Shown in pieces: positions 4 through 56,950 of a DNA stretch of 64,000 nt. The notes below the pieces were generated by a model that made no database searches, was not told the origin of the DNA, and saw only the letters and a program-made list of their open reading frames with translations. This stretch comes from a virus (Duplodnaviria > Heunggongvirae > Uroviricota > Caudoviricetes). The first letter of the stretch is position 1, and every line of letters begins with the position of its first letter. The position numbers were made by a program, and so were the translations under genes. The stretch covers positions 103,935 to 167,934 of the IMG/VR virus record IMGVR_UViG_3300046642_001000; one strand, given 5' to 3'.

Positions 4-1593
4 GTGGCGCTGGAGAGGGTGGTGGTCAAGCGGGCCCTGACGAAGACGGGTGCGATCCTCCACCGCTTCATCACGCTCACGTTCACCGTCTTCCAGCCCG
101 AACGGGTCTTCGACGAGTCCAACGAAGACTTTGACGAGTGGTGGGCGCTCGTCCGTCCCGGGACGTACTTCATCCTGCGCTACGGCTGGACCGGGCAGTC
201 CAGCAACGACCTGCTCAACGGCAACGGGATCGTCGACAAGAACAACTTCGTCGAGGGCCAGCACGACGTCCTCTTCCAGACCACCACCTGGAACTTCAGC
301 ATCAACCCGGACGGTTCTCTTTCCTTTGTCATCCAGGCGATCGACTCGGGAGACAACATCCTGGCCCAGGTCCACCTGTCGGACCTCGACTACTTCTCTT
401 CCCCCGCCCCGCAGGGACAGGAGAACAGCACTTCCTACACCGTCGGTACGAAGAACACCATCAAGGAGACCAGGTCTCCCGACGGCCAGGCGATCATCAA
501 GAAGCTCCAGAACACCATCCACGACCTGTACAATCCGTCCGGTGGAGGACAGGGAACCCCCGGCGGGAAGGGCGGACGTGCGGTCCCGTTCAGCGAGATC
601 CTGAACAAGGTCTTCGCCCCGCTGATGACGAGCGCCGTGAAGGCCGTCGGCTACGACGACGTGCAGCTCTTCCTCGGGATGTTCAACCACGACATCGGAG
701 CGGCTCGGAAGGACTGCGGCGGCGTGATGCAGGGCAAGAGCATCGGGGACTTCCTGGTCCCCGAGTCCTGGTTCAAGGACCTCCTCGGGTTCAAGCGGGC
801 CAGCGGCCAGCAGCTGAACCTCATGGCCGTCTTCAAGAACCTGCTCAACTACATCCAGCGCCAGGAGAACTGGGCCGGAGCTGGCCTGACGGACGCCGAG
901 AAGCAGCAGGCGGAGAAGGCGGCCACCGAGAACGGGCAGGTCAACAAGAAGCTCCAGGCGACGGAGGAGGCCAGGATCCTCAGGAAGCGCCAGAGCCCGC
1001 CGGAACTCATGGTGAAGACGGCCACCACCCGGGACAAGGGAAAGCTGGTCTACAGCCTGTACATCTACGACATGAAGCAGCTGTCGGCCAGCATCGACTT
1101 CGATGACCGGCTGGACCCGTCCGTCAAGGTCGACGAGATCCACAAGAAGCTCAAGAAGTACAACATCCCGTTGGTCAGCTTCAAGAACGGGCTCTCCTAC
1201 ATCCAGGAAGCCAACTTCAGCATGGAACAAGATGCGAACATGCAACACATCGCCATCGAACGTGCTGTCGATCCCAACCGCTACCAGACCGTCGGCGTGA
1301 CCCACGCCGCCCAGGCTGCCGACGGCATCGATCCCCGTAAGCTCTTCCTCTCGTCGAACATCACGGGCCGGATCACCATGATCGGGAACTTCGTGTGGGA
1401 CACGTTCCTCCGGATCTGGCTCGAGTTCGGAGTCAAGCGTTGGGACGGACCGTTCCACATGATGGAACGGGAAGACACCATCGACGCCTCCAACTTCATC
1501 ACGACCGTCTCTGTCCGCGCCACCGGCACGGATCCGCTCAACACCCAGGGTGTTCTCAAGGACACCCAGCATCGCAACACAAATCCAGTGTAA
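4..1593 (+). CDS. hypothetical protein, possibly truncated at the 5' edge of the window
   Basis: 529-aa ORF open from position 4 with a GTG first codon; GC-rich codon third positions; no motif recognised. Confidence 0.5.
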   Translation: MALERVVVKRALTKTGAILHRFITLTFTVFQPERVFDESNEDFDEWWALVRPGTYFILRYGWTGQSSNDLLNGNGIVDKNNFVEGQHDVLFQTTTWNFSINPDGSLSFVIQAIDSGDNILAQVHLSDLDYFSSPAPQGQENSTSYTVGTKNTIKETRSPDGQAIIKKLQNTIHDLYNPSGGGQGTPGGKGGRAVPFSEILNKVFAPLMTSAVKAVGYDDVQLFLGMFNHDIGAARKDCGGVMQGKSIGDFLVPESWFKDLLGFKRASGQQLNLMAVFKNLLNYIQRQENWAGAGLTDAEKQQAEKAATENGQVNKKLQATEEARILRKRQSPPELMVKTATTRDKGKLVYSLYIYDMKQLSASIDFDDRLDPSVKVDEIHKKLKKYNIPLVSFKNGLSYIQEANFSMEQDANMQHIAIERAVDPNRYQTVGVTHAAQAADGIDPRKLFLSSNITGRITMIGNFVWDTFLRIWLEFGVKRWDGPFHMMEREDTIDASNFITTVSVRATGTDPLNTQGVLKDTQHRNTNPV

Positions 1594-1620
1594 GTTTTCC
1601 TTCCCTTTTCCTCCTGCACA

Positions 1621-1629
1621 TGATATTAT
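1621..1629 (+). promoter_or_regulatory. candidate extended -10 (TGaTATTAT) just upstream of the polymerase start
   Basis: TG-n-TATTAT lies 5 nt before the ATG at 1635, the same pattern as other promoters in this window. Confidence 0.3.
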
Positions 1630-1634
1630 ATGCA

Positions 1635-3074
1635 ATGGAGGAACTCGACCTGAGCTCTGTTCTCGACGCGGTTCACGGGAAGCCGGTCGTCCTGGTTCCT
1701 TTCAAGGATCAGGCCGGAGGGCGCGCCGTGGCCATGTTGGCCGGCACGGTGTTCGAGTTCGTGTTGGATCCGGCAGTCGGCTTCGTGAACGAGGTCGCCC
1801 GGGAAGCCAGCCACGTCGTCTGCTTCGAGCACCGGAACCTCGAGGACATCTGCACCTCGGGCAAGACGGTCTATGACGTGAAGATCCTCTATGGCGGGGA
1901 GCGGAAGCTCTTCGACCTGGCCCGTGACTACCTCGACCCGGACATGGCCCGGAACGTCCTGGACCGGGAACAGAACTACACCGCCCACGTCAAGGCCTGC
2001 AAGACGGCGGGGATCGACGTCACCCGTCACTCCCTTCTCAAGCTGATGCCCGCCAGGGCTGTCCAGTCACTCCTCAAGGTCCGGGCCATAGCAACTATGG
2101 CGTTGTTTGAGAAGGCCCTCCGGGGTGAGTCCTGCGACCTCGGAGAGTATGAGAGGGACACCTGGCCGTTCGCCCTGGCTCTCCGGCAGATCGAGGTCGT
2201 CGGCATCAAGGTCGACGTGGGCTACGCGAAGGAGAAGCTCCGGGAAGACCTCCCGAAGCACGAGCACAAGTTCATCTCTCAGATGGCGCAGTCGGACGGT
2301 TACGTCCGTACCCTCTTCAACCCGGCAGGCGGGAAGACCGGCCGCATCAAGGTCGAAGAGGGGTTCAACTGCATGGGCATCCCGCACGGCACGGTCCGCA
2401 AGGGGATCGTCAGCCGGCACGAGGGCGGGGAGATCGTGGCCTTCGACTACAACGCCATCGACTACCGGAGCATCGTGGCCTCGCTCGACGACAAGGACTT
2501 CCGGAAGATCTACGACGGGGTGGACGACTTCCACGTGAAGACCTGCGAGATGATCCTCTCGGGTCCGCCCGAGAAGCTCCGTCGAGACATCATCAAGTAC
2601 TTCTCCTACGTGTACATCTATGGAGGGTCGGACGAGACCCTCGCTTCGAAGACCAGACTGAGCATGATGAAGGTCCAGCAGGTGAAGCAGGTGATGGACC
2701 GGAAGCTCCGTCCCATCGCGGACTTCCGCCGGAAGCTGGCCGTGCAGGCCCGGGTGGACGGGTTCGTCATGCTGCCGAGCGGTCGGAAGATCCCGGTGGC
2801 CGGGGACGACCACGACGGCAAGATCATCGGGCTCTACGCCCAGGGGTTCAGCTCCTGGGTCTTCGAGCAGGCGTTGGTCCGGGTGGTGGCCTACCTCCGC
2901 GAGAAGCGGAGCAAGGTCATCTTCACGGTCCACGACGAGCTGGACATCGACATGCACCCCGAAGAGGGGAAGGAGATGCTGGTCGTGAAGTCTCTCATGG
3001 AGGCGCCAGTAGAAGGATTCACGTTCAGGGCGAACCTGAAGAGAGGCAGGACGTATGGCGACGCGACCGACTGA
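1635..3074 (+). CDS. family A (PolA-like) DNA polymerase, polymerase domain only
   Basis: motif A FDYNAIDYRSIVASL (like DYSQIELR), motif B RRDIIKYFSYVYIYGGS, motif C TVHDEL; no exonuclease domain; an alternative start is at 1620. Confidence 0.8.
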   Translation: MEELDLSSVLDAVHGKPVVLVPFKDQAGGRAVAMLAGTVFEFVLDPAVGFVNEVAREASHVVCFEHRNLEDICTSGKTVYDVKILYGGERKLFDLARDYLDPDMARNVLDREQNYTAHVKACKTAGIDVTRHSLLKLMPARAVQSLLKVRAIATMALFEKALRGESCDLGEYERDTWPFALALRQIEVVGIKVDVGYAKEKLREDLPKHEHKFISQMAQSDGYVRTLFNPAGGKTGRIKVEEGFNCMGIPHGTVRKGIVSRHEGGEIVAFDYNAIDYRSIVASLDDKDFRKIYDGVDDFHVKTCEMILSGPPEKLRRDIIKYFSYVYIYGGSDETLASKTRLSMMKVQQVKQVMDRKLRPIADFRRKLAVQARVDGFVMLPSGRKIPVAGDDHDGKIIGLYAQGFSSWVFEQALVRVVAYLREKRSKVIFTVHDELDIDMHPEEGKEMLVVKSLMEAPVEGFTFRANLKRGRTYGDATD

Positions 3075-5615: not shown

Positions 5616-8600
5616 TTGTCCCGGCTCGACGACATCATCCGAGAGTCGCTCCGATCAATCTACGGGGCGTCTCAACCAAACTACTCAGGGCGTGCAGCCG
5701 GCGGGACCGGCGACAACCGGCATGGCGGTGGTGCGGGCAAGCCCGGGTACCCGGTGCCGGACGGTCTCGAGGACGACGAAGAGCAGCGGTTCCCCTTCAT
5801 GAAGGAAGGCGAGGCACCCTTGGCCAAGTCCCCCATCCCCGACGATGCCGGCGCCGCACAGGAGCCGACCGTCACCTACTCCGACCAGAGCGATCTCACC
5901 GAAGGCGGCAACGCCATGGGGACCGACCGTGTCCCCCGTGAGAACGTCGGACCGACGATCGAGGCCTACAAGAAGCAGGTCCTCTCCAAGGTCAAGCACA
6001 AGTCCGTGAAGCCCGTGGGTTCCACCGGCAAGAAGGCGTCCAGCGGGGACATCGACCTCGGCCTGGACACCGAACTGTCCCTCGAAGAGATCTCGGCCAT
6101 CCTGAAGAAGCTGGGGATCGAGCACAAGGTCGCCAAGGGACTGGGCGAGATCAACTCCAAGTTCCCGCAGTACACCCCTGATGGCAAGCCCACCAAGCTC
6201 TCCGCCCAGGTCGACCTGATGGTCGGTCCGGAGGCGTGGACCCAGTTCTCCTATTATGGACCTGGCGAGAGCGAGTCTAAGTACAAGGCGCTTCCCCGCA
6301 CAGGTCTCGTCCTCGGTCTCCTCCGGTACGCCACCGAGGAACCGCAGCCGGACGGCTCGGTCAAGTTCTGGTCCATCAGCCCGGCCAAGGGAGTCTTCCA
6401 GAAGGTCGGTCGGAAGGTCAAGAACAAGAAGGGCGAGGAAGAGTTCAAGTCGGACCGTGTGGACGCCACCAGCATCAGTGATCCCGAGGAAGTGGCCAAG
6501 CTCATCTCCAAGGGCACCGGCACGCCGTGGTCCGTGAAGGACCTGGCTGCGCCGTTCGAGCAGGTGTGGGCCAAGGCCAAGTCCACCATGGATCCGAAGA
6601 AGCTGGAGAAGGTCAAGGGCTACCTGAAGGGCTTCCTCAAGGGAGCCAAGCACGACGAGCCGTCGGAGCTCGGTGAAGCGAACGAGCCCGAGGGCGTCGT
6701 CTTCCGCGGTCTCCGTGGTCTCACTCCCCAGGAGCTCGCCAAGCTCGGCGGCAATCCGTCCCAGCCGAACGGCTCGGCGGTGATCAGCAAGGTCGACAAG
6801 AAGGGCTACTGGTCCGCCAATCCGAAGCTGGCCATGGTCTATGCCACCACCGCGGCCACTGCGGAACGGAAGGGCAACATCATGGCGATCCTCCGCGGGC
6901 GTTCGGACGCCGCGACCAAGGGTTCGGCCAAGGCGCTCAACCCCGGCACCCACGAGACCCGGATCGACAAGATCTGGTGGTCGACGGATCCGGGCCAGCT
7001 GAAGGCGGCCAAGCTCGACGAGGGCGGCGGCATCTCTCACCTCGAGGACATGAAGCCCCAGGAGTTCCTGCAGTTCCTGGCGAAGTACAAGGACCTGCCG
7101 CTCAAGGGCGGGCTCGAGGTCTCCGAGAAGGTGGACGGCTCCGCCCGCATGGAGTTCGGTGCCGAGAACGGAAAGCTCTGGACCAAGAGCAAGAACGGGA
7201 CTCCGAAGAAGTCTTCGAAGGAGTGGCCGGACAAGCCGATGTTCGCGGCTCTCAAGAACGCCCACAAGGCGCTCGAGTCCAAGCCGGTGGGACAGAACAT
7301 CCCGCCGAACACCGTCTTCACGGCCGAGGTCCTGTACACCAAGATCCCGAACTCCATCGAGTACGGTCCGAACGTCATCATGATCCACGGCGTCCACAAG
7401 GGCGACGCGGTCCTGTCCGACGAGGCCTCCAAGAAGGTGGCCAACGACCTCATCAAGAAGTCGGGCGGCCAGCTCACGGACGGCAAGGACCCGTGGAAGT
7501 TCGAGTACAAGCGGGTCATCAGCCCGGAAGACGTGATGGTGGACGTCAAGGAGGAGTTCACCTCCCTCGGACAGATCTACCAGGAGCTGAAGAAGCTCGA
7601 GCCGGACAAGCTGAAGGCGGCGGGCAAGGGCCCGTACAAGGCGGCCATGGAGCGCTTCTCGGCGATCCAGAAGGCGGTCAAGGAGAAGCTGGTCGGACAG
7701 CTCCGGAAGCAGAAGTCCTCCTACGGTCCCGAAGGCGGGGACGTGGAAGGCATCGTCTTCCGTGACCTGGAGAACGGCGCGCTCACCAAGCTCGTCGACA
7801 AGGACCTCTTCACGAAGCTCAACCAGTTCAACTGGAAGTACCGCGGTCTCATCGGCAAGGGGACCAAGGTCGACAACATCTGGCGGAACGGCGTCATCTC
7901 CGACTTCAGGAAGCGGGTGGCCACCGACGTCATCGGGAAGCCTGAGGCGGCCAGCACCGCCTTCGGCCGGCAGCTCTCTTCCCTGAACTCCGAGACAGAG
8001 TACCCGAAGGAAGCCGACACCCCCGAGAAGAAGAACGACTACCTGCTCGGACAGTGGGTGAAGAAGAACAAGGCCTTCGGCGGAAAGGACCCGGTCGCGA
8101 CCTTCAAGGCCGAGATCACCAAGGCTCAGAACGAGATGAAGCAGCTCGAGGCCGAGTGGGCCGCCGAGAAGAAGAAGGGGCCGACCGTCCAGCTCAAGGG
8201 GCAGACCCGGAAGATGGACCCGCTCGTGATGCAGCGGACGGACACGGACTTCCAGCAGGCCCACCAGTCGCTGGACGAGCTCCAGAAGGCCGCCGAGGCG
8301 ATCGGTGGGCTCAAGGGCGACCTGACCAAGAAGGTAGCCATCATGAAGCTCTTCCTCGGCCAGCACCGTCTGGAGAGGCTCCAGGGCGGCGGCGAGGAAG
8401 AGGCCGAGGAATCCGTCATGCGTGAAGCACCCGGAGTGGATTCGTACGGGGCCACCCAGCCGCAGACCGGCCAGAAGCCGACCTCGGGGTTCGACAAGAC
8501 CAGCGTCGCCCAGACCAAGACCAAGGGCGCGCCCAAGGCCACCACCGGCGTCACGACCGAGATGGCCCAGCAGATCCTCAAGAAGAACATCCCCCAGCTG

Positions 8601-11600
8601 GCGAAGCGGGGGATCAACGTCCGTGGGGCCCACCCGCTCGGGAAGGGAACACGTGGAGTCGCGTTCGACGTCGGAGGGAAGGTCCTCAAGATCACCAACG
8701 ACGAGCAGGAGGCGGTCGCTTCCTACAAGCTGATGGACGTCAACCTGAAGCACGTCGCCCGCTTCTCGGACGTCTTCCGCTTCCGTGAGGACGAGGAACT
8801 GGTCGGCGCCGTTTACGGCATCCTCCAGGAGAAGCTCGCCCCGTTCCCGGGCATGGGCAAGGACCCCAGCGGTCTGGACGCCAGCGGAGAGGCGGCTGAT
8901 CTGAACCGCGCCATCCTCGCTTTCAACCTTCAGGAGACGATCTACCGTTCGGGCTACAACTGGGACAAGACCAAGGAAGCCTGCCAGGAGGGCGTTTTCA
9001 AGAAGATCGCCGAGAAGTACCCGACCTGGAAGACGGACGAGATCGACAACAAGTACGCCATCGCCTACGCCAAGAAGATGAACGTCCAGTGGGACATCAT
9101 CACGAAGAAGGTGCATATCGACGAGATGGTGCAGGAGCTGAACTCGAAGGGGATCAAGTTCCACGACTACCACGCGGGCAACATCATGGTCCGCCAGGGC
9201 GGGGTCTACGTTCTCATCGACATCGGCTACTCCAAGGTCGCCGGCGGGAAGGAACCGCCCGTCCTGGAGAACAAGGTCCCGTACCTCGACGAAGGTCCGC
9301 CGAACAGGCTGGCCGCCCTCAAGGCCGCTCAGGCCGGTAAGAAGGCCCAGAAGGACCGTCCCATGATGGACGTGGTCCGGGACGTGCTCCCTCTCCTCAA
9401 GAAGAAGGGGATCGTGAAGGGACCGCTCAAGCCGCTCGGACACGGGGCGCACGGCATCGCCTTCGACATCGGAGCAGGTCGGGTCCTGAAGGTGACGGAC
9501 GACATCCTTGAAGCCAAGTCCTCCAACCATCTGAAGGACAAGAAGCTCAAGCACGTGGTCCACATCTTCGACGTCTTCCAGCTCCCTGGGTCGGAGTTCT
9601 ATGGCATCGTCGAGGAAAAGCTCGCCCAGATGTCGGCCTACGACAAGAAGGAGTTCGAGCTGGTGACGGACCTGCTGCAGGCCTGCAAGGCTGGCGAGGC
9701 CATCCTCTCGGGCGACTACGGCAAGGTGATGGACCAGGTCCGGCTCCACATCAAGGACAAGGACGTCCAGAAGCTGATGGACTCCCAGATGAAGGAGTTC
9801 CAGCTTCCGGAGATCATCAAGGAGCTGGCGGGCCAGCGTATCGAGTTCCTCGACTACCACGAGGGGAACCTGATGATGCGGGGCAACGACTACGTCGTCA
9901 TCGACCTCGGTCTCAGCCAGAGCCCGGGCGCGGCTCCCCCTGTCCTCGAGCGGATCGTCCACACCCTGATGCGGGAGTTCTCCGGTACCCAGCGCCTCAA
10001 GGGCCAGGGTCCGGTGGGACGTGCCGACGACCTGGAAGAGCGGAGCAAGCCGGACTACACGGACGACAAGCAGGAGTACGTCGGCGTAGACGGCGGCCTC
10101 GTGAATCACACCGAGGACGGCACGGTCGACAAGTACGCTCGAAACATCGAGGAGGCCCAGGCTGACACGGTGGGCGTGACCATAGGACGTTACCAGCCGT
10201 TCCACCGGGGTCACGCCGAAGTGATTCGGAAGCTCGCCAATACCCACACCAAGACCATCGTCCTGGTGGCCGGCAACACGCCGGACAAGAAGAACCCGTT
10301 CTCCTACGAGACCCGGCTCAAGCTCATGAAGGCGTCCCTCCCGGACGTCTGGAGGAAGCTGGAGGTCTACAAGGCGACCTCGGGCGGCAAGAACAGCGGC
10401 TTCGTCCCGGGCATCCTCTCCGACGTGGCCGGGAAGGGCAGCGCCCTGAAGGGCGACACGGCCTGCGAGATCCTGGTCGGACCCGACCGTTTCGAGCAGA
10501 TGAAGCAGCAGATCGACCGGTCCAAGGAGTACAAGGCCCAGGGGAAGGCGGCAGACAGCAACTTCGATCCCGATCTGGCCGTCGTCAAGATGCTTCCGGG
10601 CGTCAAGAACGACGACGACACCGACCGGATCAGCGGCACCCGTCTACGTCAGGCTCTGGCCAAGGACGACCGGAACGCCGTCAAGAGCATGCTCGACCCG
10701 CATGTCACCTCGAACCAGGCGACCTTCGAGTCCATCTACAAGGATCTGAAGGACGAGCTGGCCAAGAACGAGGGTCCGCTCCGGGAAGACATCGCCGACT
10801 TCGGTGGCGAGAACGCCATCATGGCCGTCATCAAGAACAACGGGGAGAAGCTCCGTGCCAAGGGCATCAACGCCGACCAGCTCCATCGCCTCGGAGCGGG
10901 ACAGGTCGGCGTGGCCTACGACATGGGCAACAACAAGGTCTTCAAGGCGACGACCTCTCCCAACGAGGCGAAGTCCTGCCTCGCCCTCAAGGGAAAGACC
11001 CTTCCGCACGTCGTCAAGATCGATGACGTCTTCCGGATGATCGACCGTCGAAACCCCGACAAGCCCCTCTACGGAATCATCCGGGAGAAGCTACACCCCC
11101 TGTCTCCGGCCGAGAAGACCGAGGTCGATGACCTGGTCGATGACCTCCGCTCCTCCGAAGTCACGGGCGGGGCGCCCCACATCGTGGACTACGACACGGT
11201 CATGAAGAAGATCCGTGACGAGCTCTCTCGCGACCTGGTGTCTGCCGGCGCCAAGAACCGCGAGCGGATCCAGCGGATGATCGACCAGAAGATCGACTAC
11301 ATCGAGCGCGGTCTGAAGAAGTACCAGATCGACCAGATGATGGCGGAGCTCAAGCAGGCCAACATCATGTTCGCCGACTACAAGGGCGACAACATCATGA
11401 AGCGTGGCGGGGAGTACGTGCTCTCTGACCCGGGCGGCCGTACCAACGGCGGCGAACCGCCCGTGCTCGAGAAGATCATGGAGACCATCATCTCCGAGAT
11501 CGGCATCACCATGACCCCGGGAAGCGGCCCCGGCGGAACTCAGGCAGGTCTCAGGGCGGGAAGCTCCGGCTGGTCCAGCCCGCAGAACATGTTCACCGAC

Positions 11601-12521
11601 GAGGACGTCGCGGCCTACCAGGAAGCGCCGGAAGAGTTCGAGCTCTGGTCCGACAAGCTGAAGGGTGTCGACACGGCCAAGGCCATCGGGGAAGAGATCA
11701 TGCGGCTCCTTGAGAAGACTCAGGCCAAGACGTCTGACCGCGCCTCCAACCAGTTCGAGCACCTGGTGGCCAAGTCCCTCCAGAGCCAGGGCATCGACGC
11801 CAAGGCCGTCGGTGGCAACGATCCGAAGAAGGCGGACGTCGAGGTGACCATCGGCGGGAAGAGCGCCTACATCGAGGCCAAGTACACCGAGGCCGGCGGC
11901 GCCAACCTCGTCTCGGCCCGCATGAAGCTGGTGGACGGGAAGTGGCAGGGATCGGGCGAGCAGACCGGCTTCACGGCCGGGATCGCCAAGGACCTGGAGA
12001 CGAACCCCGACGCCCAGAAGTTCCTGAAGGAACTGCACGCCTTCGTGGCCAAGAGCCGCAAGGAGCAGGGTCTTCCGGTGCCCAAGGTCCTCTCCATGCC
12101 GTCGCAGGGGAAGCCCGCCGACATCATGAAGCGTAGTCCGAACGCCGTGACCCCGGACGAGATCAACGCCTTCATCGACAACAAGAAGTCGGCAGGCAAG
12201 GGCAACCGCTACATCTACCTGAACGTCGGGGCGGGGGACGTGCAGCAGCTGGTGGCCGCCCACTACAAGTACAAGAACGCCCCGTACATGCAGTTCGGCA
12301 ACGACTTCTATCTTCTTGGAGACGAGGACCCGTTCGGTCTCTCCAAGCTCAATCCGCCCGTCCCCCAGTTCGAAGTGACCTCGGGACGGAAGGGGGTACG
12401 TGTAGCATCCAGGACCGGTCGTTACGAGATCATCCCCGAGCTGAAGGCCCTGAAGGTCACTCCCTCTCCCTACAGCCTGGTCGATCCGAAGAAGAAGTTC
12501 CCATTCAAGAAGCAGAAGTAA
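5616..12521 (+). CDS. giant multidomain protein of 2301 aa carrying five enzyme-like domain types
   Basis: TTG start 5 nt after an AAGGAGGG Shine-Dalgarno; very high GC3; GS..G....SGDIDL near residue 135; KVDGSAR near residue 504; three G.G..G.A.D.G...K + HDYH.GN + IDIG modules each ending PPVLE; GRYQPFHRGH ... ISGTRLR. Confidence 0.85.
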   Translation: MSRLDDIIRESLRSIYGASQPNYSGRAAGGTGDNRHGGGAGKPGYPVPDGLEDDEEQRFPFMKEGEAPLAKSPIPDDAGAAQEPTVTYSDQSDLTEGGNAMGTDRVPRENVGPTIEAYKKQVLSKVKHKSVKPVGSTGKKASSGDIDLGLDTELSLEEISAILKKLGIEHKVAKGLGEINSKFPQYTPDGKPTKLSAQVDLMVGPEAWTQFSYYGPGESESKYKALPRTGLVLGLLRYATEEPQPDGSVKFWSISPAKGVFQKVGRKVKNKKGEEEFKSDRVDATSISDPEEVAKLISKGTGTPWSVKDLAAPFEQVWAKAKSTMDPKKLEKVKGYLKGFLKGAKHDEPSELGEANEPEGVVFRGLRGLTPQELAKLGGNPSQPNGSAVISKVDKKGYWSANPKLAMVYATTAATAERKGNIMAILRGRSDAATKGSAKALNPGTHETRIDKIWWSTDPGQLKAAKLDEGGGISHLEDMKPQEFLQFLAKYKDLPLKGGLEVSEKVDGSARMEFGAENGKLWTKSKNGTPKKSSKEWPDKPMFAALKNAHKALESKPVGQNIPPNTVFTAEVLYTKIPNSIEYGPNVIMIHGVHKGDAVLSDEASKKVANDLIKKSGGQLTDGKDPWKFEYKRVISPEDVMVDVKEEFTSLGQIYQELKKLEPDKLKAAGKGPYKAAMERFSAIQKAVKEKLVGQLRKQKSSYGPEGGDVEGIVFRDLENGALTKLVDKDLFTKLNQFNWKYRGLIGKGTKVDNIWRNGVISDFRKRVATDVIGKPEAASTAFGRQLSSLNSETEYPKEADTPEKKNDYLLGQWVKKNKAFGGKDPVATFKAEITKAQNEMKQLEAEWAAEKKKGPTVQLKGQTRKMDPLVMQRTDTDFQQAHQSLDELQKAAEAIGGLKGDLTKKVAIMKLFLGQHRLERLQGGGEEEAEESVMREAPGVDSYGATQPQTGQKPTSGFDKTSVAQTKTKGAPKATTGVTTEMAQQILKKNIPQLAKRGINVRGAHPLGKGTRGVAFDVGGKVLKITNDEQEAVASYKLMDVNLKHVARFSDVFRFREDEELVGAVYGILQEKLAPFPGMGKDPSGLDASGEAADLNRAILAFNLQETIYRSGYNWDKTKEACQEGVFKKIAEKYPTWKTDEIDNKYAIAYAKKMNVQWDIITKKVHIDEMVQELNSKGIKFHDYHAGNIMVRQGGVYVLIDIGYSKVAGGKEPPVLENKVPYLDEGPPNRLAALKAAQAGKKAQKDRPMMDVVRDVLPLLKKKGIVKGPLKPLGHGAHGIAFDIGAGRVLKVTDDILEAKSSNHLKDKKLKHVVHIFDVFQLPGSEFYGIVEEKLAQMSAYDKKEFELVTDLLQACKAGEAILSGDYGKVMDQVRLHIKDKDVQKLMDSQMKEFQLPEIIKELAGQRIEFLDYHEGNLMMRGNDYVVIDLGLSQSPGAAPPVLERIVHTLMREFSGTQRLKGQGPVGRADDLEERSKPDYTDDKQEYVGVDGGLVNHTEDGTVDKYARNIEEAQADTVGVTIGRYQPFHRGHAEVIRKLANTHTKTIVLVAGNTPDKKNPFSYETRLKLMKASLPDVWRKLEVYKATSGGKNSGFVPGILSDVAGKGSALKGDTACEILVGPDRFEQMKQQIDRSKEYKAQGKAADSNFDPDLAVVKMLPGVKNDDDTDRISGTRLRQALAKDDRNAVKSMLDPHVTSNQATFESIYKDLKDELAKNEGPLREDIADFGGENAIMAVIKNNGEKLRAKGINADQLHRLGAGQVGVAYDMGNNKVFKATTSPNEAKSCLALKGKTLPHVVKIDDVFRMIDRRNPDKPLYGIIREKLHPLSPAEKTEVDDLVDDLRSSEVTGGAPHIVDYDTVMKKIRDELSRDLVSAGAKNRERIQRMIDQKIDYIERGLKKYQIDQMMAELKQANIMFADYKGDNIMKRGGEYVLSDPGGRTNGGEPPVLEKIMETIISEIGITMTPGSGPGGTQAGLRAGSSGWSSPQNMFTDEDVAAYQEAPEEFELWSDKLKGVDTAKAIGEEIMRLLEKTQAKTSDRASNQFEHLVAKSLQSQGIDAKAVGGNDPKKADVEVTIGGKSAYIEAKYTEAGGANLVSARMKLVDGKWQGSGEQTGFTAGIAKDLETNPDAQKFLKELHAFVAKSRKEQGLPVPKVLSMPSQGKPADIMKRSPNAVTPDEINAFIDNKKSAGKGNRYIYLNVGAGDVQQLVAAHYKYKNAPYMQFGNDFYLLGDEDPFGLSKLNPPVPQFEVTSGRKGVRVASRTGRYEIIPELKALKVTPSPYSLVDPKKKFPFKKQK

Positions 12522-21474: not shown

Positions 21475-22452
21475 ATGGCACTCCCGGTACCAGAGAATCT
21501 GGAAGACGCTGCCCTCGTGACCCACAAGGGTTGCATGGACGGCGCGGGATGCGCGATCATGTTCATGTTGGCGGGCGGGAAGCGTGAGAACATCCACTAC
21601 GTCGCCGCCGGCATGGTCGAGAGGTTCGTCAAGAAGGATCCCGTCTTCCAGTCGAACAAGTTCCTGATCTTCGCGGACGTCGGGCTCAACACCCCGAAGT
21701 ACGCCGAGGTCCTCGAGCGTCGTGGCAACCTGGTCCTCATCGACCACCACGACACGTCGCTCCACCTGCTGGGCCGTCACTGGGCGGAGATCGAAGAGAA
21801 GAACCAGCGCTGCGGCACGATGATGCTCAGGGACTACCTGATCAGGATCGACGACGAGAACAAGGTCGGATTCGGGCGGCGGCTCAAGAGCACGAGCTAC
21901 CGGATTTTCGCCGAGTCCATCGACGACCACGACCGCTGGCTACGCCAGAAGCTCCCGTTCTCGGAGGACCTGGCGACCTTCATGGTCTTCGTCGGCCAGC
22001 AGGACTTCATCACCCGCTTCGCCGACCCGAAGGACCGGATCTGTCAGAACATCGCGCTCGGTCGTGGCAAGGTCTACTTCACGCAGTTCGAGGACGACAT
22101 CATCAACATCCTCGACAGGCGTCGAGATGAGGCGATCGAGGAGGCCATGAAGAAGGTCACGGTGAAGGAGATCAAGCTCTCCGACGGGACCCAGGTGATC
22201 GGAGGGTTCGTCGTCACCAACGAGCCCAACATCTCTCTCCTCCTCAACCGGCTCCTGGAAGTCTACCCCCAGGTGCAGATGGCTGTCAGCGTCTGCATCG
22301 AGAAGGGGGCGGTCGGGATCCGCTCACGTGCCGGCGAGCTGGACGTTGGCCGGATAGCCGGCCTACTTGGTGGTGGCGGCCACAAAGGCGCCGCGGGGCA
22401 CAGGCTTCCGCAGGATCTGAGCGAAGTAATCCTGGAGCACATCTATGGCTGA
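21475..22452 (+). CDS. DHH-family phosphoesterase
   Basis: LIDHHDTS (DHH motif) and GGGGHKGAAG (DHHA1 GGGH motif); the ORF-table start at 21463 lies inside the -10, so the second ATG at 21475 is used. Confidence 0.7.
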   Translation: MALPVPENLEDAALVTHKGCMDGAGCAIMFMLAGGKRENIHYVAAGMVERFVKKDPVFQSNKFLIFADVGLNTPKYAEVLERRGNLVLIDHHDTSLHLLGRHWAEIEEKNQRCGTMMLRDYLIRIDDENKVGFGRRLKSTSYRIFAESIDDHDRWLRQKLPFSEDLATFMVFVGQQDFITRFADPKDRICQNIALGRGKVYFTQFEDDIINILDRRRDEAIEEAMKKVTVKEIKLSDGTQVIGGFVVTNEPNISLLLNRLLEVYPQVQMAVSVCIEKGAVGIRSRAGELDVGRIAGLLGGGGHKGAAGHRLPQDLSEVILEHIYG

Positions 22453-23398
22453 TATCCTCGGAGTCTCGTTCGACGACATCTTCGTCAAGCTCCTTCGGAA
22501 GCTGAGCCGGAACCCCGACTTCGTCTGCGCCCCGCGTGGACAGAAGATCAAGGAAGACCTGGCCCTCACGCTCGTCCTGACGGACCCGCGGTCCCGCTTC
22601 ATCCACAACCCGGCCCGGAAGTCGAACTACGGGTTCGCGGCCGGGGAGTTCCTCTGGTACTGGCAGGGTCGCCGGGATCTGGAGATGATGCTCTACTACA
22701 ACCGGCGGATGAAGGACTTCTCGGACGACGGCCACACGCTGAACTCGGCGTACGGCTACCGGCTCCGGGCGGGGTCCGACCTGCTGGACATGGACAGCCA
22801 GTGGAACAACTGCATCGCCACCCTGTCGGGGGACTCGGACAGTCGACGGGCGGTCATGACCATCTTCGCCCCGATCGACGCGGACGTGGCGGTGCACCAG
22901 GGATCGAAGGACGTGCCCTGCACCCTCTCGCTCCAGTTCTTCATCCGTGACGGCGCGCTCCACCTGCACGTCCACATGCGGTCCAACGACGCCATCTGGG
23001 GCCTGACGAATGACCTCTTCAGCTTCACGCTCTTCCAGGAGTGCATGTTCCTGGACCTGAAGCGGCAGAACCCGAAGTTCGCGGACCTGCGCCTCGGCCA
23101 GTACTACCACACGGCCGGCTCGCTCCACCTGTACGAGCGCCACTTCGAGATGGCCGAAGAGGTCATCAAGCTCTACGACGAGGGCTTCAGGTGCTACGAC
23201 GCCATGCCGGCCCTCACCAGCCTCGAGTCTCTGGACAAGCTGGGCTACGACGAGGAAGAGCTTCGCAAGCGTTACATCGACCAGATCCAGCTCTCCAAGT
23301 ACGAGGGCGGGGAGCTGTGGCTGGCCGACGAGTTGAATGTACACCGGCAAAAGAGGGACGCCGAAGAGTCCCTCAAGGGAGACAAGAAAGCAGGCTGA
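22445..23398 (+). CDS. thymidylate synthase (ThyA)-family protein, candidate pyrimidine hydroxymethylase
   Basis: VPCTLSLQFFIRDGALHLHVHMRSNDAIWGLTNDLFSFTLFQ aligns with the ThyA PCH..FQFYV...RS.D...G.PFNI core, but carries Thr where ThyA has His; RRAVMTIF matches the ThyA RR motif. Confidence 0.7.
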   Translation: MADILGVSFDDIFVKLLRKLSRNPDFVCAPRGQKIKEDLALTLVLTDPRSRFIHNPARKSNYGFAAGEFLWYWQGRRDLEMMLYYNRRMKDFSDDGHTLNSAYGYRLRAGSDLLDMDSQWNNCIATLSGDSDSRRAVMTIFAPIDADVAVHQGSKDVPCTLSLQFFIRDGALHLHVHMRSNDAIWGLTNDLFSFTLFQECMFLDLKRQNPKFADLRLGQYYHTAGSLHLYERHFEMAEEVIKLYDEGFRCYDAMPALTSLESLDKLGYDEEELRKRYIDQIQLSKYEGGELWLADELNVHRQKRDAEESLKGDKKAG

Positions 23399-24525: not shown

Positions 24526-24784
24526 AGGGTACGAGTGCCACCTGACGTTCGACGCTGAACAGGCGAAGCTCGCCGAGGCGTCGTGTCCCTACGGCTGGAA
24601 GTTCAGCCGGATCGAGGGCGATCCCGTCCTCGGCCAACGACTCTACTGCTACTGGACGGCGTGGCACGGGTCGCAGGGAGTGATCGAAGACGAGATGCGC
24701 GGCGCCATCAGACTGGCCAATCGCAACGGTCTCCCCCTGGTCAGGGCGAAGATCGAACACATCATCTACGACCAGAGGTACTAA
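24518..24784 (+). CDS. hypothetical protein
   Basis: 88-aa ORF. Confidence 0.4.
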   Translation: MDRGYECHLTFDAEQAKLAEASCPYGWKFSRIEGDPVLGQRLYCYWTAWHGSQGVIEDEMRGAIRLANRNGLPLVRAKIEHIIYDQRY

Positions 24785-25338
24785 TGAGCGTAGTCATCAA
24801 TCTCTACGGTGGACCGGGCACCGGCAAGTCCACCTCGGCGGCCTACCTCTTCTACCTGCTGAAGTCGCAGGGGAAGAACGCCGAGCTCGTGCGGGAGTAC
24901 GTCAAGGACTGGGCGTGGGAGGGTCGCACGATCTCCACCTACGACCAGATCTACCTGCTCGGCAAGCAGGTCCGTCGGGAGAGCTTCCTCTACGGGAAGG
25001 TGGACATGATCGTCACCGACGCCCCGATCATGCTGGGCATCTACTACGCCAGCAAGTTCTCTCCCCTCTCGGTCAGTGAGGGAGTCCGGGCCATGACCCT
25101 CGCCTACTACCGGCAGGCGGCCGAGGACGGCCACCAGCACCACCACGTCTTCCTGGAGCGCACCAAGCCGTACAAGCAGGAGGGTCGGTTCCAGAACGAG
25201 GAGCAGGCCAAGCAGATCGACAACGGCGTCTATGGGATGCTGTCCGACCTGCGGATCCCGCTTGTCCGATGCGGGACGCAAAGAGAAGATCTAGACGAGC
25301 TACTTACCACTCTGAAGGTAAACAACCCCAAGGCTTAG
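24784..25338 (+). CDS. P-loop nucleotide or nucleoside kinase-like protein
   Basis: Walker A YGGPGTGKST near the N-terminus; 184 aa. Confidence 0.6.
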   Translation: MSVVINLYGGPGTGKSTSAAYLFYLLKSQGKNAELVREYVKDWAWEGRTISTYDQIYLLGKQVRRESFLYGKVDMIVTDAPIMLGIYYASKFSPLSVSEGVRAMTLAYYRQAAEDGHQHHHVFLERTKPYKQEGRFQNEEQAKQIDNGVYGMLSDLRIPLVRCGTQREDLDELLTTLKVNNPKA

Positions 25339-25354: not shown

Positions 25355-26419
25355 ATGAAGCGCACGACAAAGCTCAGGATCTTCTACAAGTCCAAGTCCT
25401 CAGGACAGGGTCACAATCCCTACCACACGGGCGGACTGGCGGCGAACGCGCTGCACACCGTCGGCGTCCTCCGTCGGGAGGGTGTAGACGTAGACCTCGT
25501 CGCCGTGTCCAGCTTCGACGAGCTGGCGGCCTACCTTCGGGCCAACCCGGACATCACCCACGCCGTCATCGAGGCGGTCTGGGTCAAGGCGTCCGAGGTC
25601 GTCCTCCTGTCCCACGCCCACCCCCACCTCAAGATCGTGGTGCGGGCGCACTCCAAGATCGGGTTCCTCCAGGTCGAGCCCGAGGCCATCCCGGTCATCC
25701 GGGCCCTCATCGACCTCGGGGAAGAGTACCCGAACATCTCTTTCTCCAGCAACAACCAGGAGTTCTGCAACTCTCTCGGGGAAGTCTACGGCGACGTGCT
25801 CTACCTGCCGAACCTCTTCGACTGGGACGGGTCTCCCCCGAAGAAGCACAGCCACGATCGCATCCTCAGGCTGGCTTCTTTCGGTGCCACCCGGCTCCTG
25901 AAGCTCCACTCTTCCGCGGCACTGGCGGCCCTTCAGGTCGCCGTCCGCCTCGACCGGCAGCTGGAGTTCTACGTCAATACCGACAATACCCCGGGAGGTC
26001 ACAGCGTCCGGAACACGATGCGGAACCTCTTCGCTGGTCTCCCCTGGGCGAAGCTGATCGAGGTGAGCTGGCAGGACGCGGCCACCTTCCGGGAGACCAT
26101 CGCTGAGATGGACCTGGTCTTCCAGCTGTCCGCCACCGAGACCTTCTGCCTGGTGGCCGCGGACGCCGTGTCCAGCGGGGTGCCAGTGATCGTCGGAGAG
26201 GCCGTCAGCTGGGTGCCGGAAAGGTACCAGTCCAACATCGACGACACCTCGGAGGCGGCAACCGAGGCCATCCGCGCACTGGAGAGCAGCCACAAGACGG
26301 TCAAGGTGCAGCAGGAAGCCCTGAACGACTTCGTGGAGTCTTCGACTCGGATCTGGCGCACGTTCCTCGGGATGCCGAGCGGACGGGAAAGCCGTAAGAA
26401 CCTCTGGTGGATTTTCTAA
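25355..26419 (+). CDS. GT-B fold glycosyltransferase (GT1/GT4-like)
   Basis: C-terminal SATETFCLVAADAVSSGVPVIVGE resembles the GT4 E..G..EAMA.G.PVI donor-binding block. Confidence 0.55.
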   Translation: MKRTTKLRIFYKSKSSGQGHNPYHTGGLAANALHTVGVLRREGVDVDLVAVSSFDELAAYLRANPDITHAVIEAVWVKASEVVLLSHAHPHLKIVVRAHSKIGFLQVEPEAIPVIRALIDLGEEYPNISFSSNNQEFCNSLGEVYGDVLYLPNLFDWDGSPPKKHSHDRILRLASFGATRLLKLHSSAALAALQVAVRLDRQLEFYVNTDNTPGGHSVRNTMRNLFAGLPWAKLIEVSWQDAATFRETIAEMDLVFQLSATETFCLVAADAVSSGVPVIVGEAVSWVPERYQSNIDDTSEAATEAIRALESSHKTVKVQQEALNDFVESSTRIWRTFLGMPSGRESRKNLWWIF

Positions 26420-32960: not shown

Positions 32961-33185
32961 ATGGCCAAGATCAAGATCACCTGGATGAGTGACGGAGCAG
33001 GCGTCGATAGCATCCACGAGAACGGTCCCAAGATGGCCAAGGACAGTTATCTTGGCCACATCACCCGCATCGAGGACGAGTGGTTCTTCGTCCAGGCGGG
33101 AGTCCAGAAGCCGCACGGTCCCTACGGTTCGATGGCGGAAGTTCGCCGAGCAGCTCTCAAGATCGTCGATGGGGAGTACATCTAG
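32961..33185 (+). CDS. small hypothetical protein
   Basis: 74-aa ORF. Confidence 0.45.
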   Translation: MAKIKITWMSDGAGVDSIHENGPKMAKDSYLGHITRIEDEWFFVQAGVQKPHGPYGSMAEVRRAALKIVDGEYI

Positions 33186-33187
33186 GT

Positions 33188-34321
33188 ATGTCCATGCGCG
33201 TCGCTCTCGTCATTCCGACCATCCGGGAGAACTCCTTCAAGGACTTCATCTCCCGGTGGGAAGCCCTCGGTCTCTATCAGGCAGTCGACCTGATCGTGAT
33301 GGAGGACAACCCGAAGAAGACCTTCGACGTTTCCAGCGTCGACAAGCGGTGGGGAGCGGTCCACCTCTGCTGGGAAGACATCGAGGCTGACCTCGGGAAA
33401 GACAGCTGGATCATCCCCCGGCGTTCGGACACGGTCAGGAGCTACGCGTACTACTACGCCTGGAAGATGGGTTACGATTTCATCCTCACCCTCGACGACG
33501 ACTGCTACCCGCCGTCGAGGGATGTGGATGGACTTCAGTACGAGGACGGGGAGTCGTTCGTCGCCTCCCACCTCCAGTACCTGGAGAAGCGGACCCGGTG
33601 GTTCAACACCCTGAACAAGGTGAAGCCACGTGGCATCCCGTTCTACAACCTCGGTCGCAACGACAAGGTGATCGTCAATCACGGGCTCTGGACCAACGTG
33701 CTGGACTACGACGCCCCGTTCCAGCTGGCCAACCCGATCCCCGAGGAGTTCAGCTTCGACAACCGGATCGTGCCCAACGGCTCGTACTTCCCGATGTGCG
33801 GCATGAACGTCATGTGGCGCCGGGACGCGACGGTCCTCATGTACCACCTGCTCATGGGCCAGGTCCTCCACTCCAGAGAGAACAGCAAGATCTACACCCC
33901 GCCCCTGGGGACTCTCCTCACGGTCCCGGACTCTCCGGGCCTGGCGCTGGAGAAGTTGGCCTTCGACAGGTTCGGCGACATCTGGTGCGGCATCCTGATG
34001 AAGAAGATCGCGGACGTGAAGCGTCTTCAGGTCTCGACAGGCATGCCCTACATCCGGCACGAACGGGCCAGCAACCCGTTCGCCAACCTGAAGAAGGAAG
34101 CGAACGGCATCGAGGTCAACGAGAAGTTCTGGGAGCACGTCGACAAGGCTCAGATCTCTCCGGGGCTCGACCTGGATGGCTGCTATGGCGAGATGGGGCA
34201 ACACATCGGAGCCTATTCGGAGTACCCAGAACACGCCCAGTACTTCAGGCGGCTGGGGGAAGCGATGGTCATCTGGTCCAAGCTCTTCCGGCGCCACGGC
34301 GGCGGAACTTCGGGAGTCTGA
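33188..34321 (+). CDS. GT75-like glycosyltransferase (reversibly glycosylated polypeptide / UDP-arabinopyranose mutase family)
   Basis: IPTIR, TLDDDCYP (DxD), HGLWTNVLDYDAPFQL, PMCGMN, and STGMPYIRHERASNPFANLKKE aligning with plant RGP blocks. Confidence 0.7.
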   Translation: MSMRVALVIPTIRENSFKDFISRWEALGLYQAVDLIVMEDNPKKTFDVSSVDKRWGAVHLCWEDIEADLGKDSWIIPRRSDTVRSYAYYYAWKMGYDFILTLDDDCYPPSRDVDGLQYEDGESFVASHLQYLEKRTRWFNTLNKVKPRGIPFYNLGRNDKVIVNHGLWTNVLDYDAPFQLANPIPEEFSFDNRIVPNGSYFPMCGMNVMWRRDATVLMYHLLMGQVLHSRENSKIYTPPLGTLLTVPDSPGLALEKLAFDRFGDIWCGILMKKIADVKRLQVSTGMPYIRHERASNPFANLKKEANGIEVNEKFWEHVDKAQISPGLDLDGCYGEMGQHIGAYSEYPEHAQYFRRLGEAMVIWSKLFRRHGGGTSGV

Positions 34322-38231: not shown

Positions 38232-38570
38232 GTGGACGACAAGAACAAGGATCTCGAACGCCTCAAGAACCCGGTGGCCCTCTCCGAGAAGGAGAAGAAC
38301 ATCCAGCAGGTCCCGTTCCGGATCCATAGGAACGACTACCAGGCGCTGAAGAAGCTGTTGAAGGGGGACAACTGGAAGCTCCAGACCCTGTTCACCGCGG
38401 TGGTCGACGCCTACATGAACCGGGACCCGCTGCTCATCAAGATCCTCGCCGACTGGAAGGAAGAGAACTCCATCCCCAAGCGGGCCAAGGAGAACTACAA
38501 CCTCTCCACCAGAGAGCGCAAGGGAATCCTCGACGAGCTCGAGGACATGGGTGATCTGGAGCACGAGTGA
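38232..38570 (+). CDS. hypothetical protein
   Basis: 112-aa ORF with a GTG start. Confidence 0.45.
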   Translation: MDDKNKDLERLKNPVALSEKEKNIQQVPFRIHRNDYQALKKLLKGDNWKLQTLFTAVVDAYMNRDPLLIKILADWKEENSIPKRAKENYNLSTRERKGILDELEDMGDLEHE

Positions 38571-39154
38571 AGCTGCTAGCTCTCACCTTCTCTCTCCTCC
38601 TCGTCCTGGGATCCTGCGCCTGGGCCGAAGGCACCACCCTTCGGAAGAACAAGTTCGGTCACGATCAAGTCTTCGTCTCTTTCCCCGTCAAGTGGAACTT
38701 CACCTGCGACTTCCCTGAGAAGTTCAAGGCCGACGTCCGCGACGGGTTCCGCTACTGGGACGACATGACGAAGAAGGATCTCTTTCAGGAGGTCCCCTGC
38801 GGCACGATCAAGAAGCCAGACCAGGGGATCGCGGTCGGTTGGTCCATGAAAGAGTACCTCGAAGATGGGGAGAAGGAGAAGGTCGCCGGGACCGCCTACA
38901 TCTTCCCCGGACTCGAGGTCCCCACCGGCGGGGCGATCATGTTCTGGAAGGACTGGCTCACGGAGCGGAACGGGAACATCCGGCGCTCCGTGTCCCGTCA
39001 CGAGGTAGGTCACCTGCTCGGGTTCGAACACAACACCCGCTGGGACTCGTGCCTGATGTACCCGTACGTCAGCACCGATCGCGTCAGCTACGAGGGACAC
39101 GAGAAGCAAGCCTGCTGGTCGGAGTACCGCGCATTCATTCGCAACTATCGCTAA
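38567..39154 (+). CDS. secreted metzincin-type zinc metalloprotease
   Basis: signal peptide / lipobox LLVLGSC; HEVGHLLGFEH (HExxHxxGxxH). Confidence 0.7.
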   Translation: MKLLALTFSLLLVLGSCAWAEGTTLRKNKFGHDQVFVSFPVKWNFTCDFPEKFKADVRDGFRYWDDMTKKDLFQEVPCGTIKKPDQGIAVGWSMKEYLEDGEKEKVAGTAYIFPGLEVPTGGAIMFWKDWLTERNGNIRRSVSRHEVGHLLGFEHNTRWDSCLMYPYVSTDRVSYEGHEKQACWSEYRAFIRNYR

Positions 39155-56747: not shown

Positions 56748-56950
56748 GCCATCGGTGGAGCGGCTGGCCTGGCGCCTGGTGCCTGGACTGCGGGATGGAA
56801 GACCCGAACGAGATCTGTCTGGCGGACCACGACCACGACACGTCTCCGACGACCTGTCCCGTGGACTGGAGCAAGGTGCCGGCCGACTGTCCGGAGCCCG
56901 GGTCCAAGCGGTGTGACCCGTACGAAAGGCAAAGAGAGAAAGCCAAATGA
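56744..56950 (+). CDS. small Cys-rich protein
   Basis: 68-aa ORF. Confidence 0.4.
   Translation: MSHRWSGWPGAWCLDCGMEDPNEICLADHDHDTSPTTCPVDWSKVPADCPEPGSKRCDPYERQREKAK

Follow-up and report, generated by a model that had tools for sequence, protein, structure and literature searches.

What does the N-terminal third of a giant protein encoded by an uncultured large phage do? The gene lies on the + strand of a 64,000-nucleotide stretch (positions 103,935 to 167,934 of IMG/VR record IMGVR_UViG_3300046642_001000; hereafter the window). A preliminary description of its sequence had pointed to a pol-beta nucleotidyltransferase (NTase) signature followed by an ATP-dependent ligase-like motif, and had read the tandem of two nucleotidyl-transfer chemistries as RNA end-healing and sealing or as the synthesis of a signalling nucleotide. 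We conclude that this third holds two working-looking enzymes, a Pol-beta-like nucleotide adder and an RNA-ligase-type joiner, whose identities as domains are secure on the basis of conservation and predicted fold. We consider it most likely that the two enzymes cooperate during infection to repair broken nucleic acid strands, an activity predicted from sequence and structural models. The features discussed below are located in Table 1.

Both motifs were found where they had been reported, within a single open reading frame (ORF; 5616-12521, + strand): VGSTGKKASSGDIDLGLD comprises residues 134-151 of the giant protein (window 6015-6068), and LEVSEKVDGSARMEF, 366 residues further on, comprises residues 500-514 (window 7113-7157). 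The GC content of the ORF by codon position (0.61/0.38/0.90) matches that of other + strand genes and is the typical coding pattern in this 62% GC window. An antisense ORF of 1,520 codons (5685-10247) displays the mirror pattern (0.90/0.38/0.62) and was set aside as a shadow ORF. Taken by themselves as patterns, the motifs do not exceed chance. The giant protein contains 19 matches to the loose [GS]x9-13Dx[DE] pattern where shuffles contain 15.2, and a single KxDG where 1.6 would be expected. The argument from patterns alone was therefore dropped, and the motifs are taken as real active sites because of their conservation in homologues and the predicted folds. Sequence libraries annotate only the downstream parts of the protein; the N-terminal third has no match in Pfam, PHROGs, NCBIfam or PADLOC (a library of known defence systems). 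Likewise, phmmer of residues 1-761 against PDB sequences gave no match, and profile searches of both domains against the PDB returned only spurious helical matches (apolipoprotein A-I, CHMP1a).

Homologues of the NTase were collected as 13 relatives of the N-terminal region from a 5.8-billion-protein collection and then 61 more by an NTase profile, most of the latter being stand-alone proteins of ~300 aa without a Pfam domain. In an alignment of 66 sequences, G135, S136, G138, G144, D145, D147 and D200 are invariant, and K139/K140 are nearly so. The domain thus contains the hG[GS] and [DE]h[DE]h elements and the later third carboxylate that mark the Pol-beta superfamily, and an AlphaFold2 model calculated with the 66-member alignment (pLDDT >90 for residues 11-260 of the modelled segment) contains the alpha-beta-alpha-beta-alpha-beta palm. 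The pol-beta assignment thus stands, with a full and invariant catalytic triad. The GS-x-KK...SSGDIDL motif also resembles GSFRRGAESSGDMDVLL of Pol beta.

The best PDB fold matches of the NTase model are TdT, Pol beta, Pol lambda, Pol mu and ASFV PolX, with 147-165 residues aligned, whereas the alignments with TENTs are shorter (128-136 residues). Identity in the family X alignments is just 10-16%, and the region past the palm is beta-rich and may correspond to a family X thumb. A search of BFVD returned uncharacterised phage proteins first, followed by a Pithovirus DNA-directed DNA polymerase and an entomopoxvirus 'probable AP endonuclease'. Neither the domain nor its 66-member profile has a PolX sequence match in Pfam, NCBIfam or the PDB. 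None of the 66 family members matches the RlaP model PF10127 at E <=0.1, and membership in RlaP was rejected on sequence. As judged from the model, the NTase represents a new family with the Pol-beta fold and comes nearest in shape to the minimal family X polymerases.

These comparisons also bear on the idea that the NTase is a cGAS/DncV-like or OAS-like synthase of a signalling nucleotide. We consider it extremely improbable: cGAS/DncV-like folds rank below both family X polymerases and TENTs, no PADLOC model matches, no effector or receptor gene lies nearby, and the recurrent fusion partner of the NTase is a strand-joining ligase. CD-NTase membership was rejected on the first two of these grounds.

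A profile of the ligase module, run with HMMER exhaustively against 1.84 billion cluster representatives, matched 433 proteins (clusters at 50% identity). Conservation was scored in the 146 representatives covering motifs I to V. K505, D507, G508, N579, Y583, G712 and K725 are conserved in 100% of these sequences, E711 in 99% and E571 in 93%, and motifs I, III, IV and V occur in the correct order. Motifs IV and V, which had been proposed as plausible, correspond to EGIVFRD (711-717) and LTKLVDK (723-729; window 7743-7805), with key residues 99-100% conserved. The KxDGxR form, on the other hand, is not borne out; K-V-D-G-S-A-R is KxDGxxR, and its Arg is not conserved, being Phe in the homologue P0001.

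A true ligase had been expected to possess an adenylation-domain fold and a conserved motif I lysine, and both were found. The AlphaFold2 model (pLDDT 92, pTM 0.86) adopts the adenylyltransferase fold, its top eight fold matches are all RNA ligases (NgrRnl, Trl1, Rnl2, Rnl1 and REL1), and the lysine is invariant. Past motif V the model is helical and not an OB fold. A helical C-terminal domain is also present in Rnl1 and Rnl2; an OB domain is, to our knowledge, present in every characterised DNA ligase. Membership in the ATP-dependent DNA ligases was rejected on the missing OB fold and the form of motif I. Among 58 aligned relatives, 32 match PF09414 RNA_ligase (best 1.9e-7), three match RNA_lig_T4_1 and two match DUF6267; P0001 matches PF09414 at 0.0034, below the cut-off of that model, and the window's own module has no PF09414 or PF09511 match at E <=0.01. 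Separately, a histidine ~30 residues upstream of the motif I lysine, His475 in the sequence GIxHLEDL (window 7038-7040, + strand), is 99% conserved in the family and has an equivalent in DUF6267 (HLTHLEDL); it is not known to be one of the classical ligase motifs.

Among metagenomic proteins, fusions between the NTase and ligase families exist in either order. The NTase domain is carried by 21 of 150 representatives with the ligase module. It precedes the ligase in the giant protein, in P0001 and in about ten further giant homologues, and nine representatives of 670-791 aa consist of nothing but the complete ligase module followed by the NTase (P0132, P0137, P0140, P0157, P0159, P0168, P0177, P0181 and P0207). 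In a second ligase branch (P0005-P0013), an N-terminal NTase is followed by the Pfam module DUF6267. That these fusions run in both orders, and that the NTase has joined two ligase branches, makes the strongest case for a shared pathway and suggests that the two enzymes probably work together. The coupling that the preliminary description had suggested from the tandem thus gains support. Strict end-healing is not supported, because the end remodelling carried out by kinases and phosphatases is not done by a Pol-beta NTase, and 'fill and seal' is the better description. The core of the family consists of the ligase, its helical domain, one to five kinase-like domains and a HIGH-superfamily NTase, to which the Pol-beta NTase and a C-terminal PD-(D/E)xK-like domain are optional additions.

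We tentatively favor the reading that residues 95-925 make up a single unit in which the filling and the sealing of broken polynucleotide strands are coupled, leaning to RNA or RNA-terminated ends. Its catalysis, the order of its steps, its substrate and its role in infection we infer as follows. The Pol-beta-fold domain, using D145, D147 and D200 with two metal ions, would add one or a few nucleotides to a 3'-OH. The ligase domain would react with ATP to form a covalent K505-AMP intermediate, hand the AMP to a 5'-phosphate end and then join the activated 5' end to the 3'-OH. Likely substrates would be RNAs, such as tRNAs, that nucleases of host defence have cleaved. Two considerations tilt us towards RNA. 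The ligase belongs to the RNA-ligase type and has no OB fold, and there is a precedent by analogy, in that RlaP Pol-beta NTases are found in association with RNA ligases and extend damaged RNA 3' ends by one or two nucleoside monophosphates (PMC7824862, PMC12776372). Genes for a SpoU methyltransferase, an HD hydrolase, a DHH esterase and two metallophosphoesterases, which are possible RNA end remodellers, provide weak context in the window.

Several observations weigh against this reading. Structurally the NTase is nearest to the DNA polymerases of family X and not to RlaP. The window corresponds to the part of its phage genome devoted to replication and nucleotide metabolism; the genes for a PolA-like polymerase, the HD hydrolase, the giant protein, a HELAH peptidase, SSB, UvsX, a 5'-3' exonuclease (FEN) and DnaB are accompanied by those for ribonucleotide reductase, the DHH esterase, ThyA-like and ThyX enzymes and the DnaE polymerase, so that the giant gene sits among PolA, SSB, UvsX, FEN, DnaB and DnaE in a DNA replication and recombination setting. 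The related DUF6267 gene of cyanomyoviruses is near uvsX and gp41. At the C-terminus of the giant protein is a nuclease-like PD-(D/E)xK domain, whose fold acts mostly on DNA. Neither a P-loop polynucleotide kinase nor a 3'-phosphatase forms part of the protein, the fused kinases being protein-kinase-like, and the window contains no tRNA genes. Finally, about three quarters of the giant homologues lack the NTase, and the ligase must therefore also function without it.

A rival reading is DNA repair or the sealing of replicative nicks, in which the family-X-like domain would fill short gaps, possibly with ribonucleotides as bacterial LigD does, the ligase would seal the nick and the PD-(D/E)xK domain would trim ends. 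By analogy with ASFV PolX and ASFV ligase, or with the three domains of LigD, such a system would act in the replication, recombination or break repair of phage DNA. We regard this as unlikely, though a serious alternative. The family X polymerases give longer alignments with the NTase than do TENTs, and the first annotated BFVD matches are the two viral DNA enzymes named above. The gene lies between PolA/HD and SSB/UvsX/FEN/DnaB, and the order PolA, HD, giant gene, peptidase, SSB, UvsX, FEN, DnaB is kept in the 198.6-kb contig L008, which carries the homologue P0002; a replication context is found in two unrelated phage groups. P0005 and P0006 also combine NTase, ligase-like and PD-(D/E)xK domains. 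A canonical DNA ligase was not found among the ~45 window ORFs scanned; however, only 64 kb of the genome is visible and such a gene may lie elsewhere. The ligase itself argues against this reading, since it is without an OB domain and its motif I is not KxDGxR.

The DUF6267 branch raises a related possibility. DUF6267 proteins contain the motifs K[VIL]DG and EGF[AV]VSD..KLVDR in the same order as the giant protein's ligase, and in P0005 and P0006 the module is followed by a nuclease-like C-terminus homologous to that of the giant protein. An hhalign comparison of the window's ligase family with DUF6267 (PF19782) gave 95.7% probability over motifs IV-V only (~55 columns). PF19782 is not matched by the window's module, P0001 or P0002. 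Because the alignment is partial, we treat the two on sequence grounds as related families and not as one. DUF6267 is present in 104 phage records, mostly Synechococcus and Prochlorococcus myoviruses and other marine phages. In Synechococcus phage S-WAM1 the gene overlaps a downstream 'cytitidyltransferase' gene and is near uvsX and the gp41 helicase gene; the neighbors hyp164 (upstream) and hyp167 (downstream) of cyanophage DUF6267 genes match no domain of the giant protein, and literature searches for DUF6267 and for the 'cytitidyltransferase' annotation returned nothing. According to reviews, cyanomyoviruses have no homologue of g30 (DNA ligase), and rnlA and pseT were likewise not identified in them (PMC2984593, PMC1079782). 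It is conceivable, if rather doubtful, that the OB-less RNA-ligase-type family and DUF6267 provide the strand-sealing enzyme of large phages without a gp30/LigA-type DNA ligase, T4-like cyanophages included, partnered in DNA replication and repair by the family-X-like gap filler and perhaps by a cofactor of the NMNAT-like enzyme. The DUF6267 link would then offer a concrete candidate for an old gap in the T4-like cyanophages, the missing ligase noted since 2005.

The most constant pairing in the family is that of the ligase with the HIGH-superfamily NTase, which is also found as short two-domain proteins (650-700 aa) in both orders (P0104, P0129, P0122 and P0125). The library annotation of this domain in the giant protein spans residues 1522-1679. 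In profile searches of the PDB it matches the nicotinamide mononucleotide adenylyltransferase (NMNAT) MJ0541 at 2.3e-12 and NadM at 3e-10, so that NMNATs are its nearest solved relatives. The similarity is confined to a ~60-residue HxGH region; the domain passes the NCBIfam TIGR00125 cut-off and falls far below the NMNAT equivalog cut-offs.

Genes related to nicotinamide adenine dinucleotide (NAD) were noted near other members of the NTase family and in the window. Stand-alone NTase genes at loci L001, L004 and L005 (gene ~6001-6945) adjoin genes for SIR2, NUDIX, NadM-like NMNAT-Nudix and NAMPT proteins, and one in a different phage context (L002, 6001-6921) is near genes for NUDIX, an isochorismatase-family protein that is possibly a nicotinamidase, and NAD synthase; these neighbors may tie the family to NAD metabolism. 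The window itself encodes an AAA_28-type P-loop protein (GGPGTGKST; 24583-25338, + strand), whose true start is probably an internal Met near 24781. The AAA_28 Pfam family presumably includes the NadR ribosylnicotinamide kinase domain.

These features raise the prospect of an NAD-linked function. The ligase would work with the fused NMNAT-like domain, which would supply NAD+ or an adenylylated cofactor, or would build or repair NAD-type RNA 5' ends, and the NTase would belong to the same NAD/ADP-ribose conflict system. The constancy of the ligase and HIGH NTase pairing in both orders, the adjacent and overlapping genes of S-WAM1, the NMNAT relatives of the HIGH domain, the neighborhoods of the stand-alone NTases and, through its presumed NadR link, the P-loop protein are all consistent with such a function. 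Nevertheless, we judge it highly unlikely: the resemblance to NMNATs covers only the HxGH region, one phage group accounts for three of the four NAD-rich neighborhoods, the ligase is not preceded by an NAD-binding Ia-type domain, and large phages may group such accessory genes for other reasons.

The remainder of the giant protein combines further enzymes. The profile of the kinase-like domain weakly matches eukaryotic-type protein kinases (EGFR, YopO and MAPK), and in the first copy the G-loop, Lys, Glu, D..N and D are invariant. All three paralogues, which are mutually 32-36% identical, retain the G-loop, Lys, Glu, D..N and DFG-like Asp. Each copy stops ~15 residues past the DFG-like IDIG, always with a conserved EPPVLE tail, and homologues contain from one to five copies. 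The nuclease-like C-terminus is homologous to the C-termini of P0005, P0006, P0079, P0080 and P0083, with a conserved D...E-x-K pattern. At the other end, the GKPGYPVP stretch is likewise N-terminal in P0002, P0003, P0075, P0080, P0082 and others, and homologues start there. The ~110-aa insert between the NTase and ligase domains is missing from P0001, and the sole other copy found, in P0094, is at a different position, after the ligase. With no family match, it behaves like a mobile small domain; its VVFRG...YWS...ETR pattern is faintly reminiscent in sequence of the R-S-E motifs of ADP-ribosyltransferases.

The peptidase gene is directly 3' of the giant gene, and in contig L008 its homologue lies one gene downstream of the giant homologue. 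The 330-aa gene that follows the giant homologue there was considered as a split-off NTase or nuclease domain and rejected. The HELAH peptidase may cut the giant protein into separate enzymes.

Such an arrangement recalls the polyvalent proteins, in which case cleavage would free the domains to act separately: the NTase would transfer nucleotides to a protein or small molecule, the ligase-like domain would work on something unrelated, and the tandem would reflect co-delivery. Eight enzymatic domains of disparate chemistry are present on one polypeptide, and domain composition varies freely among homologues. The kinase domains end just past the DFG-like motif, as do those of polyvalent proteins, which are described as truncated, without the C-terminal subdomain (PMC5512222). 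Zincin peptidases are a hub domain of polyvalent proteins and their proposed processors (PMC5512222), and a conserved zincin HExxH peptidase gene is adjacent here. We nonetheless find this explanation quite unlikely. The NTase and ligase occur alone as reverse-order two-domain proteins, which speaks in favor of a common pathway; the enzymes that the NTase matches best in structure are polynucleotide-extending ones and not protein AMPylators; and the gene is in a replication module, not beside portal, MuF or other virion genes. In addition, RNA ligases are not reported as associates of polyvalent-protein 2H domains in the 2017 survey, whose text also contains nothing on HIGH-superfamily NTases (PMC5512222).

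Table 1. Window coordinates of the giant gene, its domains and motifs, and the adjoining peptidase gene.
Feature	Position	Strand	Basis or remark
Giant ORF, 2,301 aa/codons	5616..12521	+	TTG start; AAGGAGG Shine-Dalgarno seven bases upstream of TTG
N-terminal low-complexity leader, aa 1-94, with conserved GKPGYPVP motif	5616..5897	+	Sequence and homologues
Pol-beta-fold nucleotidyltransferase domain, aa 95-355, family-X-polymerase-like	5898..6680	+	No Pfam model
NTase catalytic motif, G135-S136-TGKKASSG-D145-I-D147	6018..6056	+	66-sequence alignment
Third catalytic carboxylate, D200 (QVDLMVG)	6213..6215	+	Invariant in 66 sequences
Insert of ~110 aa (aa 356-465) between NTase and ligase domains	6681..7010	+	pLDDT <50 in model
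RNA-ligase-type adenylyltransferase (covalent lysine nucleotidyltransferase) domain, aa 470-746	7023..7853	+	
Ligase motif I, K505-V-D507-G508	7128..7139	+	K505 is the predicted AMP-accepting lysine
Motif III glutamate E571 (AEVLYTK), followed by invariant N579 and Y583	7326..7328	+	Conservation
Motif IV (E711-G712-IVFR) and motif V (K725-LVD-K729)	7746..7802	+	Conservation
All-helical C-terminal domain of ligase module, aa 747-925, without OB fold	7854..8390	+	
Protein-kinase-like domain 1, ending just past DFG-like IDIG	8541..9290	+	Weak Pfam APH/ABC1 and PHROG kinase matches
Protein-kinase-like domain 2	9351..9980	+	34% identity to domain 1; PHROG T7-type protein kinase, 4e-4
HIGH-superfamily adenylyl/cytidylyltransferase domain (GRYQPFHRGH)	10131..10805	+	Pfam CTP_transf_like 2.8e-8; PHROG cytidyltransferase 2e-18
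Protein-kinase-like domain 3	10821..11540	+	32-36% identity to domains 1 and 2
C-terminal PD-(D/E)xK nuclease-like domain (DVEV...IEAKY)	11706..12518	+	Weak Pfam Mrr_cat match, 0.054
Small zincin metallopeptidase gene (HELAH), 174 aa	12544..13068	+	Pfam ATLF 2e-5, below its cut-off; HExxH in translation

Other genes of the window were noted in passing. No close isolate phage was found for it, the DnaE identity being <30%. Upstream of the giant gene, the overlapping + strand ORFs 4-1593 and 1395-3074 are in different frames, and a family A DNA polymerase match is limited to the C-terminal half of the second; their counterparts in L008 are two separate genes (589 and 443 aa), so that the polymerase may be encoded in two parts or have been given a wrong start. 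Four + strand genes encode a ThyA-like protein (22445-23398), ThyX (43162-44028), an RGP-like glycosyltransferase (33080-34321) and a second glycosyltransferase-like protein (25355-26419), a set that might serve DNA base modification. Also on the + strand are genes for a SpoU-family RNA 2'-O-methyltransferase (54710-55300), two calcineurin-like phosphoesterases (40654-41442 and 56947-57531) and a matrixin-like metallopeptidase (38567-39154). The methyltransferase and the two phosphoesterases could join in RNA end remodelling or protection.

No paper was found that describes the NTase or ligase families, their fusion or the giant architecture, and in the sources the family members are named 'hypothetical protein' or 'cytidyltransferase-like protein' and nothing beyond that. 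The known system closest in logic is RlaP (PF10127) with the RNA ligases Rnl1, Rnl2 or RtcB, which likewise pairs a Pol-beta NTase bearing three carboxylates with an RNA-ligase-type partner (PMC7824862, PMC12776372). The predicted logic, to restore missing 3' nucleotides and then seal, is also shared. The differences are that the window's family falls outside PF10127, that the C-terminal domain of RlaP is helical (PMC12776372) whereas the window NTase is beta-rich there and may have a family X-like thumb, and that an operon association is replaced by covalent fusion in both orders. Minimal family X polymerases such as ASFV PolX, with ASFV ligase, are similar in pairing an NTase with a ligase; unlike them, the window NTase gives no Pfam or PDB sequence match, is 10-16% identical in structural alignments, and has no 8-kDa or helix-hairpin-helix domain, and its partner is an RNA-ligase-type enzyme without an OB domain.

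The ligase differs from NgrRnl (Rnl5), T4 Rnl2, T4 Rnl1 and Trl1 in that its sequence matches no RNA ligase Pfam model, although its relatives weakly do, and in its 13-20% identity to them in structural alignments. It also has a ~120-residue helical insertion between motifs IIIa and IV and the nearly invariant His475 upstream of motif I, and it is embedded in a protein of >2,000 aa. DUF6267 (PF19782), an uncharacterised family of T4-like cyanophages and marine phages, has the same motif order, similar flanks (NTase...PD-(D/E)xK) and a cytidylyltransferase partner, but the profile alignment is only ~55 columns long and the window module does not match PF19782. Polyvalent proteins (Iyer et al. 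2017) resemble the giant protein in their many unrelated enzyme domains, truncated Ser/Thr/Tyr-kinase-like domains and zincin partner. Here, by contrast, the peptidase is a separate adjacent gene and the locus is in a replication and not a virion module; the survey text gives no sign of RNA ligase or HIGH NTase domains in the class (PMC5512222).

Both partner families are without a curated model or a characterised member, yet they are fused in both orders and widespread, with 433 clusters matching the ligase profile. Taken together, these comparisons indicate that the repair logic of a Pol-beta nucleotide adder with an RNA ligase is known from RlaP and Rnl, whereas the families, the fusion and the giant architecture appear to be new. 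They expose a class of giant phage multi-enzyme proteins that combine a ligase, truncated protein kinases and an NMNAT-like transferase, with or without polymerase-like and nuclease-like domains.

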